Origin: Octopus vulgaris
Taxonomy: Eukaryota
Length of the DNA: 64,000 bases
NCBI GenBank assembly: GCA_951406725.2
Contig: OX597820.1
Coordinates: 57,722,001 to 57,786,000, forward strand
Direction: 5' to 3'
The notes below the pieces were generated by a model that was given only the letters and a program-made list of their open reading frames with translations, was not told where the DNA came from and searched no databases. A program made the translations under genes and the position numbers. Shown piece after piece: positions 18,855 through 59,300 of this stretch. The first letter of the stretch is position 1, and every line of letters begins with the position of its first letter.

Positions 18855-19512
18855 TTTTTTACTCCAGTCACAAGGCCCGAAATTTTGGGGGAGGGAGTGG
18901 GGGGGGGGGCAGTCGATTAGATCGATCCTAGTACGTAACTGGTACTTAATTTATCGATTTCGAAAGGATGAAAGGCAAAGTCGACCTCGGCGGAATTTGA
19001 ACTCAAAACGTAAAAGACAGAAGAAATGCCGCTAAGCATTTCGCCTGGCGTGATAACGTTTATTATATCTTTATTGTCCACAAGGGGCTAAACAAAGAGG
19101 GGACAAACAAGGATAGACAAAAGAAATTAAGTCGATTATATCGACCCTAGTGCGTAACTGGTACTTATTTAATCGACCCCGAAAGGATGAAAAGCAAAGT
19201 CGACCTCGGCGTAATTTTAACTCAGAACGTAGCGGCAGACGCAATACCGCTAAGTATTTCGCCCGGTGTGCTAACGTTTCTTATTTCTTTATTGCCTACA
19301 AGGGGTGACACACAGAGGGGACAAATAAGGACAGACAAAGAGATTAAGTCGATTACATCGACCCCAATGCGTAACTGGTACTTAATTTATCGACCCCGAA
19401 AGGATGAAAGGCAAAACCGACCTCGGCGGAATTTGAACTGCGAACGTAGCAACGGGCGAAATACCGCTAAGCATTTCGTCCAGCGTGCTTACGATTCTGC
19501 CAGCTCGCCGCC
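18855..19512 (-). mobile_element. SINE family A, three-core multimer
   Basis: Same architecture as 2382-2996. Confidence 0.85.
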
Positions 19513-39120: not shown

Positions 39121-39525
39121 ATACACAAGAGTTAAGGAACGGAGTAAAGATCCAGGTTACATATGTTTCATAGCAAACGGAACCTTAGAAGTGGTAAATA
39201 TCCAAGCTAGGTGTATACCGTTGGCTACTCATCCGGTCAAAGATATCTTGACTAAATGAAAGTTTACATTGTCGCTATGAGGTACTTGTTAACACATGGA
39301 ATATTCTCCACTCTTATTGTGCTCGCTACACATTCTGATAGCTTCTTGCACGTGTTAAGAAGTACCTCCTGTGACAATGTAAACCTTCATTCAATCAAGA
39401 TACCCTTGGTCTGACAAGTAGCCTGGGGTATACACCTCGCTTGGATATTTACCACTTCTGAGGTTTCGCTCGCTATGAAACATGTAGCCCAGAATTTATC
39501 TACTGTGTTCCTTAACTCTTGTATA
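39121..39525. mobile_element. Old fold-back element (~170-bp diverged arms), a decayed hammerhead in each arm
   Basis: Right arm GGT-CTGACAA-GTAGC..GCTAT-GAAA-CATG-TA-GCC (39408-39489); left arm (-) GAC-CGGATGA-GTAGC..GCTAT-GAAA-CATATG-TA-ACC (39155-39238). Confidence 0.75.
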
Positions 39526-39721: not shown

Positions 39722-39791
<70 letters not shown>

Positions 39792-39950
39792 TCGCCATAC
39801 TAATATGGCATTCTTATAAAAATAAGAATAAAGCTGTCCGCTTATTAGCTCCATGAGGCCATCGCCTTAAGTTAGCTATTTGATACACAAACTGTATCCA
39901 TATAACCTTTGAACAAGGGAGGTCAGTCGCTCCACACTACTTGGCCGGCA

Positions 39951-39992
39951 GCTACAGACGCGTTTCGGGGTATTGCCCCTTTTCAATGCAGC
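39951..39992 (-). ncRNA. Minimal type I hammerhead, U3-A8 variant (mirror copy)
   Basis: Exact reverse complement of 40473-40514. Confidence 0.75.
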
Positions 39993-40472
39993 GTAGCCAG
40001 ACCAGTAGGTGTCGCTTCTGACAATCTCTGTTCAAAGGTTTTATTTACCTAGCTTCGGTGGAATACATCCACTTGTTTTCAATAATAGAAATATTAAAAT
40101 TACTAAGTCTCTCTAAAAGAGAACAACGGCAGCGTTCCCGGAAAATAATAGTTATCGCCATACTAATATGGCATTCTTATAAAAATAAGAATAAAGCTGT
40201 CCGCTTATTAGCTCCATGAGGCCATCGCCTTAAGTTAGCTATTTGATACACAAACTGTAAGCGGACAGCTTTATTCTTATTTTTATAAGAATGCCATATT
40301 AGTATGGCGATAACTATTATTTTCCGGGAACGCTGCCGTTGTTCTCTTTTAGAGAGACTTAGTAATTTTAATATTTCTATTATTGAAAACAAGTGGATGT
40401 ATTCCACCGAAGCTAGGTAAATAAAACCTTTGAACAGAGATTGTCAGAAGCGACACCTACTGGTCTGGCTAC

Positions 40473-40514
40473 GCTGCATTGAAAAGGGGCAATACCCCGA
40501 AACGCGTCTGTAGC
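40473..40514 (+). ncRNA. Minimal type I hammerhead, U3-A8 core variant
   Basis: GCTGCA-TTGAAAA-GGGG-CAATA-CCCC-GAAA-CGCG-TC-TGTAGC; palindromic ACGCGT; GUC site ending at 40508. Confidence 0.78.
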
Positions 40515-40740
40515 TGCCGGCCAAGTAGTGTGGAGCGACTGACCTCCCTTGTTCAAAGGTTATATGGATACAGTTTGTGTATCAAATAGCTAACTTAAGG
40601 CGATGGCCTCATGGAGCTAATAAGCGGACAGCTTTATTCTTATTTTCATAAGAATGCCATATTAGTATGGCGATAACTATTATTTTCCGGGAACGCTGCC
40701 GTTGTTCTCTTTTAGAGAGACTTAGTAATTTGAATATTTC

Positions 40741-40801
<61 letters not shown>

Positions 40802-41096: not shown

Positions 41097-41650
41097 TGTG
41101 TGAGTGAGAGAGAGAGAGAGAGCGTGGCTTTCTGTGTCTTTCGCCGATTTATATTGGCGACAGACATAAAATCCAGCGAAAATCAGTGTTTTACAAACAT
41201 AGGTCCTTGAGATATTTATTCCGCATCGAATTGCAGGTACTTACTTCCTTGTCAGAAATGCTATGAACAAGTGATTAGCCAGAAGACGCCCAATGGTGAT
41301 ACCAAATATGATTAAAGAGAGGTTAATAACCCAGTGCAGTACGACAGAAAAGGAGGTGTCATCTTACCCTGTACTAAGCGGCGGGATTGACAGGATGCGA
41401 ATTTTAGATTTTTTCAACTGCAAAGCAAAAATGCTAACGATTCGACCAGCTGTGTTCTGGCAAGAAATGCTTTCCTTCCACCCATTGGTTCCTGGTTTTA
41501 GCTTGGTAAGTTGAGTCTAAAAGAGATGATGAAATAGTGTAAGTAGTTTCACTTGATCAACTTGAAGTAACTATATCGCTACATATATGTGCATATCTTA
41601 AATCTGGATACACATTTTGTCTCAGTCTCGGCACATTCAGAATAAAGTAG

Positions 41651-41844
41651 AAGTGACTACATCAATATTGTTATTAGATGTTGATCTGTGTGTCCAGCTT
41701 ACGGTCGTGAGGTTGTGAGTTCGATTCCCGGACCAGGCTGCGTGTTGAAGTAACTACATCAATATTGTTATTAGATGTTGATCTGTGCGTCCAGCTTACG
41801 GTCGTGAGGTTGTGAGTTCGATTCCCGGACCAGGCTGCATGTTG
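41651..41844. repeat. 97-bp tandem duplication spanning flank and SINE head
   Basis: 41651-41747 closely matches 41748-41844. Confidence 0.85.
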
Positions 41845-58779: not shown

Positions 58780-59300
58780 GGGCGGCGAGCAGGTAAAATA
58801 ATTAGCATGCTTAGCAGCATTTCGTCCGTTCTTCCGTTCTGCATATAATTCCGCCGTGGTCGACTTTGCCTTTCATCCTTTCGGAGTCGATGATATAAGT
58901 ACCAGTTTAACACTGGGGTCGATGTAATCGACTTATCTCCTTCCCCAAAACTGCTGACTTTGTGCCAAAATTTGAAATTAATATTGTGATCATCATCAAT
59001 TCTGCTAAGGTCGATTTTGCCTTTCATCCTTTCGGGGTTGACTCTGTCTTTCATCCTTTCGGGGTCGACGAAATAAGTACCAGTTTAAAACTGGGGTCGA
59101 TGCAACCAACTTATCCTCTTCTCCAAAACTGCTAGCCTTGTGCCAAAGTTTGAAATCAATATTATGATCATCGTTAATTTCGCCGAGGTCGATTTTGCCT
59201 TTGATCCTTTCGGGGTCAATTAAATAAGTACTAGTAATGCACTGGGGTCGATGTAATAGACTTACCCCTCCCCATAAATTTCAGGCCTTGTAGTAGAAAA
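58780..59300 (+). mobile_element. Tandem array of family A SINE cores
   Basis: Repeated cores separated by a recurring AATAT..TGATCATC flank. Confidence 0.75.

Follow-up and report, generated by a model that had tools for sequence, protein, structure and literature searches.

Two-armed insertions of a young 363-nt hammerhead retrozyme pair two fixed outer ends and suggest copying from a single RNA monomer

How a 363-nt repeat came to be inserted in (TA)n as two head-to-head arms, and from what template these arms were copied, is the question posed by positions 39785 to 40746 of the window, the 64,000-nt stretch of Octopus vulgaris DNA analyzed here. The initial annotation had described a 363-bp period with antisense and sense arms permuted at different points, one hammerhead ribozyme (HHR) per arm, about two substitutions between copies and (TA)n on either side, and all of this is borne out by the structure in Table 1. 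Arm positions are numbered on a monomer, M, defined as 40258-40620; relative to M, the right arm carries two substitutions (40647 and 40732) and the left arm none. Both arm 3' ends face outward into (TA)n, within which any target-site duplication would be hidden. No open reading frame (ORF) of a Penelope-like element (PLE) with reverse transcriptase (RT) and GIY-YIG domains was found in the element or in the window, nor was a terminal-repeat/internal-region layout of the LTR type seen in the element. None of the contigs listed from four sequencing runs spans the junction between the arms, so that support for it is indirect and comes from the many other insertions having the same build with different junctions. 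All parts of M are found in contigs of the four runs (three only presumed to be RNA, one untyped), a presence that shows neither transcription nor a circle.

Table 1. Features of the two-armed insertion, in window positions; M numbers refer to the monomer.
Feature	Position	Strand	Remarks
Left (TA)n target tract	39724..39787	none	
Left arm, 475 nt, M312 to M60	39785..40259	(-)	3' end is site A joined to (TA)n; tail absent
Type I hammerhead of left arm	39951..39992	(-)	Predicted cleavage after C at 39957; identical to right-arm hammerhead
Head-to-head junction of two 5'-truncated arms	40258..40259	none	2-nt overlap (TA)
Right arm, 489 nt, M1 to M126 of second unit	40258..40746	(+)	3' end is site B joined to (TA)n
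Monomer M, 363 nt	40258..40620	(+)	GC 0.41; longest stop-free frame 65 aa
Site A, internal copy (M52-63)	40309..40320	(+)	Predicted single-stranded after two hairpins; putative reverse-transcription start 1
Site B, internal copy (M119-126)	40376..40383	(+)	Nearly invariant stretch across subfamilies; putative reverse-transcription start 2
Long predicted hairpin, hammerhead at tip	40425..40561	(+)	
Type I hammerhead of right arm	40473..40514	(+)	C17 at 40508
63-nt "tail" (M64-126)	40684..40746	(+)	Outer end of right arm only
Right (TA)n target tract	40744..40796	none	

Other repeats lie in the window. A MITE-like pair of 111-nt inverted arms (39163-39273 and 39373-39483; 84% complementary, 99 nt apart) is unrelated to M. 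Two SINE-like 97-nt tandem copies at 41647-41840, 96% alike, contain what we take to be a Pol III B-box-like motif; ARAGORN found no tRNA in them. Tandem arrays of SINE-like units of 178-217 bp, with about 85% matches, occupy 2580-2946, 18911-19498 and 58858-59217.

In the right-arm hammerhead, a 6-bp stem I (40473-78/40509-14) leads into the core U3-U4-G5-A6-N7-A8-A9 at 40479-85, which is of the U3:A8 type. There follow a 4-bp stem II (40486-98), G12-A13-A14 at 40499-501 (GAAA) and a stem III that amounts to a 2-bp palindrome, then C17. Rfam at the gathering threshold gave no match in the window. The 33-nt ribozyme core is present in 786 exact copies in the 2.8-Gb genome and in none in the reversed control and is therefore not a chance occurrence; a relaxed ribozyme pattern found 1430 matches genome-wide and one in the control. 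Among 15 aligned copies, the ribozyme helices are 96% paired (by cells) and double changes affect 6 of the 24 ribozyme pairs, slid controls giving at most one (the shuffle control takes no account of copy relatedness). One double change swaps the stem III palindrome for another palindrome. N7 takes all four bases and the core is mutated in 2 of the 15 copies. As judged from these alignments, the hammerhead helices are conserved by compensation across subfamilies. The whole monomer is also strongly self-paired: its circular minimum free energy is -122.0, as against -82.3 +/- 5.6 for 60 dinucleotide shuffles (z -7.0). A U3-A8 core and a palindromic, dimer-dependent helix III are known for PLE hammerheads, and a hammerhead with a 2-bp stem III is expected to be weak as a monomer, as described by Cervera and de la Pena (2014, PMC4209133).

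The best matches to M are 98-100% identical; older subfamilies, 79-87% identical, have the period and ends of the young one. Arm lengths reach 2736 nt. With 363 nt and a GC content of 0.41, M falls inside the range given for retrozymes (tandem monomer of 150-450 bp, GC below 50%). Searches for an ORF-bearing version returned only relatives of the same kind: the first 100 of the 1430 relaxed ribozyme matches all belong to this retrozyme family, and 40 of 1275 matches to the B end, those examined, are older subfamilies only. None of 144 loci has an ORF of its own attached to a copy; attachment to an ORF-bearing PLE is what the initial annotation had named as evidence against its reading. Its description of the repeat as retrozyme-like and recently active agrees with the near-identity of the best matches, the 786 exact cores, the type I hammerhead and the lack of an ORF. 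The element is a young ORF-less non-LTR retrozyme, that is, a non-autonomous PLE. A plant LTR retrozyme (type III hammerhead in the LTRs, 4-bp target-site duplication) is ruled out by the type I topology and tandem layout, and an autonomous PLE by the lack of an RT/GIY-YIG ORF.

Insertion ends were mapped in a main sample of 104 loci (110 fetched minus 6 duplicates) containing 107 insertions and 186 arms; its sources (30 top BLAST hits, 60 exact ribozyme matches on two contigs and 20 variant matches) bias it to long arms. Outer ends fall at two sites, 63 nt apart, in 177 of the 186 arms: A (M56-68) in 86 and B (M120-130) in 91. TA-rich sequence lies beyond the outer end in 154 of these 177 arms. 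Seventy-nine of the 107 insertions are two-armed and 28 single-armed. Every two-armed insertion with both ends at these sites combines one of each (71 A+B, no A+A, no B+B; p = 8e-22 against an expectation of 50% A+B), the other 8 having one other end. A second sample of 40 loci, chosen on the B end and not selected on the ribozyme, contains 24 two-armed insertions: 19 A+B (one locus being duplicated), one B+B and 4 other. The lone B+B insertion, L315, has two site-A changes in both arms that no other of the 139 matched locus records shows. Altogether, 90 A+B insertions with different junctions are dispersed over many contigs. Exact junctions with (TA)n number 414 for the A end and 1275 for the B end genome-wide, the two patterns being unequal in strictness. 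In the untyped run, X15, possibly the source of the assembly itself, loose ends turn to (AT)n at M62 and M126.

The inner 5' ends behave differently from the outer ones. They are spread along the unit but accumulate at the base of the hairpin, M288-304 (29 against 8.8 expected; 11 against 3.1 in the second sample), and the two inner ends of an insertion are offset by 0-181 nt modulo 363. The initial annotation had proposed that copy ends mapped across the genome would be randomly permuted if the template were circular: this is the pattern of the inner ends, while the outer ends, being fixed, do not conform. Junctions overlap by 1-6 nt in 48/79 cases (a BLAST overlap, taken without a control) and are near-symmetric in 5/79. 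Arms exceed unit length in 100 of 177 cases in the long-arm-biased sample and in 11 of 62 in the sample chosen without regard to the ribozyme. At the cleavage site, 5' ends were in excess in the main sample (7, where 2.2 were expected); this signal was dropped because the second sample failed to replicate it (0 against 0.6-1.3). A negative correlation of A and B arm lengths, likely a sampling effect, was left unused.

Some loci stand apart. L008 (C13) and L027 (C22) share a junction (M204/M353) and arm lengths, with different flanks and one different allele, and may represent a junction hot spot or a re-copied insertion. In L307, one two-armed insertion is duplicated 1.1 kb apart (1082-1431 and 2205-2557). 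Unrelated sequence of 133-150 nt is captured between the two arms in L024 (1159-1308) and L219 (4288-4420). Two repeats are blended letter by letter in L086 (3940-4115), L326, L333 and L335, which look like consensus-polishing artefacts, possibly at heterozygous insertions.

To characterize the template, haplotypes were compared at 11 polymorphic sites in 85 insertions of the young subfamily. Allele discord was 11/944 (1.2%) between the arms of an insertion and 38/1365 within arms, 27 of the latter from one locus, as against 11649/27633 (42%) between insertions. Fourteen private variants, found in 13 of the 85 insertions, are present in all of the copies covered, and 8 of these variants are seen on both arms; 4 others occur in a subset of copies. 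We read the 121 private variants present in only one copy as later mutations or errors, inherited heterogeneity being the alternative. Copying nearly always passes the cleavage site: 207/214 arrivals go through and 7/214 stop there (24/24 cross in the second sample), and 217/219 cores continue straight into the stem I strand, without a scar. Nesting of one arm within the other is compatible with arm length in 48 of the 71 A+B insertions and impossible in 23, this locus (478/489 nt) included. Because the arms share a haplotype, carry private variants in all units, pass the ribozyme site without a scar and are not nested, they appear to be two independently primed cDNAs from one monomer that was continuous across the cleavage site. 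The clonality favors a single-monomer template, and this template was probably a covalent monomer circle, the simplest account of clonality and continuity together. Such a reading matches the retrozyme model with a circle outlined by Cervera and de la Pena (2020, PMC7229834). The circle proposed in the initial annotation is thus plausible on grounds other than random permutation. Its further argument, that copies longer than one unit are the footprint of a circular RNA, does not discriminate, since in the in vitro work of Frangieh (2024) a PLE acts mainly on tandem RNA that has not been cleaved.

The genome contains four young autonomous PLE families with RT and C-terminal GIY-YIG (one checked by Pfam) and ORFs of up to 753-811 aa. 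Their targets are (TA)n tracts, their hammerheads are of the U3:A8 type with a stem III that is palindromic, and their two ends are separated by about 35-45 nt. Among 30 loci of these families with copies in two orientations, all 20 resolved head-to-head pairs are A+B. L048 represents a fifth family of the two-ended type and looks older (94% or less). In three two-ended families that were folded (from L171-L200 and L221-L300), the tail starts a predicted stem-loop with site B in the loop, just upstream of the start codon. A "Poseidon-like" label for these families was dropped because they carry the CX2-5CxxC linker, assigned to Neptune/Nematis in the text of Craig (2021, PMC8557442).

We consider it likely that the locus is an insertion of a young ORF-less hammerhead family, for which a borrowed PLE RT/endonuclease (EN) nicked both (TA)n strands and primed two cDNAs, at A and at B, on one RNA, probably a covalent monomer circle. 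Transcription running through a tandem copy would yield a multimeric RNA, in which two hammerheads could pair via the palindromic stem III so that a monomer would be cut out and ligated to a circle. One nicked TA end would anneal to UA-rich site A and the other to UA-rich site B. Each RT would then circle the template for 0.1 to 7.5 turns before stopping at a position that varies, the base of the long hairpin being a frequent one. Joining of the two cDNA 3' ends via a few bases that they have in common would produce the head-to-head arms and leave the tail on one side only. There is perhaps an even chance that one PLE RT dimer holds one 363-nt circle, its two active sites on two non-interchangeable starts, with rolling-circle copying from both nicked (TA)n strands. 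If this were so, the inverted repeat and one-sided tail of PLEs would be a direct print of dimer geometry, and the family would constitute genomic evidence for rolling-circle reverse transcription of an animal retrozyme. Counter to the insertion scheme as a whole are the 28 of 107 insertions that have no second arm and the 121 single-copy private variants. In addition, HHR cleavage is dispensable and uncleaved RNA dominant as substrate in the in vitro experiments described by Frangieh (2024, PMC11167929), and only 1/9 Xenopus retrozyme dimers was cleaved in vitro in those reported by Li (2026, bioRxiv 10.64898/2026.07.22.740005).

In one alternative, the same two-site PLE priming acted on a linear tandem transcript that came from a homogeneous donor locus and was never cleaved, with no circle and the hammerhead incidental to insertion. 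The preference of a PLE for uncleaved RNA in vitro (Frangieh 2024), the expected weakness of a monomeric hammerhead with a 2-bp stem III (PMC4209133) and the identical footprint that autonomous PLEs leave here from tandem units all suit it, and a donor with a variant in all its units would yield clonal daughters. Such a transcript could serve for any single event, yet repeated single-monomer steps would still be needed in the lineage, one for each all-unit variant (14 private variants, 24 rare occurrences, 11 common sites). Few variants are confined to some of the units (4 + 2), those that recur in single units mostly resemble CpG changes and differ in register, and compensation keeps the ribozyme helices across subfamilies; we regard this alternative as unlikely. 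A fold-back origin, in which the first cDNA primes its own copying to give the inverted arm and the endonuclease afterwards trims this arm at the second UA-rich site (after the self-priming proposal of Arkhipova et al. 2013), would explain the shared haplotype directly and fits the 5/79 near-symmetric junctions and the 48/71 insertions with compatible arm lengths. It fails for the 23/71 that are not nestable in either direction, this one among them, and for inner ends differing by up to 181 nt modulo 363, and it would predict some A+A or B+B pairs; its probability appears to us very low. An assembly chimera, or palindrome formation in a satellite at the DNA level with no RNA step, is scarcely credible: mixed-consensus stretches resembling polishing errors do exist elsewhere in the genome (L086, L326) and none of the listed contigs spans the junction, but the 90 A+B insertions obey one end rule with varied junctions on many contigs, ORF-bearing PLEs share this rule, and the ribozyme covaries.

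The remaining alternative concerns the source of the enzyme, which would be NepA, a very young PLE family with a 4477-nt tandem unit and a minimal hammerhead, instead of the two-ended group. At the protein level, about 100 NepA copies show 99-100% identity (examples are L151/L152, at C6 about 117.39-117.40 Mb, and L121-L170). In L036 and L071, M is joined directly to NepA or a relative inside the endonuclease region, and M41-53 (40298-40310), the hairpin before site A, is a 13-nt exact reverse complement of a motif repeated in the NepA 3' region (L040, 7441-7453). This match scores 26 against a shuffle maximum of 23, but it is post hoc, has one mismatch in the M2 subfamily and may be chance. 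Both chimeras, whose origin is ambiguous, are equally explained by later insertion into the same TA tract with deletion, and their use as proof of a NepA partner was withdrawn: NepA has a single 3' end at (TA)n, and the 50 stretches examined (39 distinct loci, not all long enough to reach the 5' end) contain no inverted arm. We thus find NepA a rather improbable source. A few short pLTR pairs of NepA (L098, L118) are in inverted orientation, and in these the two arms use the same end. The enzyme most likely came from one of the two-ended PLE group. Any particular mobilizing family is a candidate only, because the 63-nt tail is present in no autonomous PLE family examined in the genome (tails about 35-45 nt) and M aligns with seven two-ended PLE 3' regions no better than shuffles do.

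Both the two-armed PLE architecture and the retrozyme class are already known, so that the value of the family is mechanistic and does not lie in a new kind of system. The origin of PLE tandem and inverted structures and of the one-sided tail is described as unresolved in the texts of Craig (2021, PMC8557442) and Arkhipova (2013, PMC3846280), and mobilization of animal retrozymes by PLEs rests, as presented in PMC7229834 and bioRxiv 10.64898/2026.07.22.740005, on co-occurrence and homology. In a literature search that covered mostly open-access main texts, we found no published report of a PLE two-armed footprint on a retrozyme, of a one-arm-per-site rule or of per-insertion clonality. The family supplies young, polymorphic insertions of a 363-nt substrate by the hundred, and three testable rules follow from them: each start site accounts for one arm, each insertion has one template, and the ribozyme site is passed seamlessly. 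Simple fold-back is excluded in a third of the cases. Reconstitution should also benefit from the presence, in the same genome, of a minimal RNA and of several candidate enzymes that are intact.

In LINE-1 twin priming, a second primer anneals internally, at a position that varies and where the first cDNA ends, and the product is an inverted arm with a microhomology join. The present insertions resemble these products in their probable two-primer origin, inverted arm and microhomology join. A LINE-1-style origin was nevertheless rejected: 68/71 B arms run through site A, and 1/71 stops within 15 nt of it.

The closest relatives are the metazoan non-LTR retrozymes (Cervera and de la Pena 2020, PMC7229834; Li et al. 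2026, bioRxiv 10.64898/2026.07.22.740005), likewise described as ORF-less, highly self-paired tandem monomers of 150-450 bp with GC below 50% and a type I hammerhead, for which reverse transcription of a circle into tandem cDNA, with PLEs as mobilizers, has been proposed. Unlike those published, the family here forms short, dispersed, two-armed insertions in (TA)n and has a U3:A8 core. Inverted arms, tails and fixed ends of retrozymes are not described in the main texts of the two papers, where "inverted" occurs only in one reference list. These traits are found in EN+ PLEs, whose partial tandem, inverted 5'-truncated copy and 30-40-bp tail at one end are set out by Arkhipova (2013, PMC3846280) and Craig (2021, PMC8557442). 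A partial tandem with a head-to-head inverted copy, a tail at one end, a microsatellite target and a hammerhead within the repeat are common to both. An inverted build with a tail on one arm is the standard PLE insertion footprint, which the initial annotation had overlooked. Differences are that the octopus element lacks an RT/EN ORF, has a tail of 63 nt instead of 30-40, consists entirely of the repeat and has no homology found to a resident pLTR. For the Anolis Poseidon element PAc in vitro (Frangieh 2024, PMC11167929), both strands are nicked and extended, and two internal RNA starts bracket the tail. The two internal RT starts at the tail, AT-rich target, ribozyme-site read-through and predicted dimer are features in common with the present family. 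As far as that report describes them, the PAc starts are not homologous to the cut DNA and the start site does not differ between strands, whereas in the octopus family A and B both match the TA target and each is used once per insertion. Finally, the Cercyon PLE hammerheads of Schistosoma (Cervera and de la Pena 2014, PMC4209133) have the same U3-A8 core covariation and a short palindromic helix III expected to act as a dimer; unlike those minimal ribozymes, the one described here has stems I (6 bp) and II (4 bp) of canonical size and is borne on a long rod.
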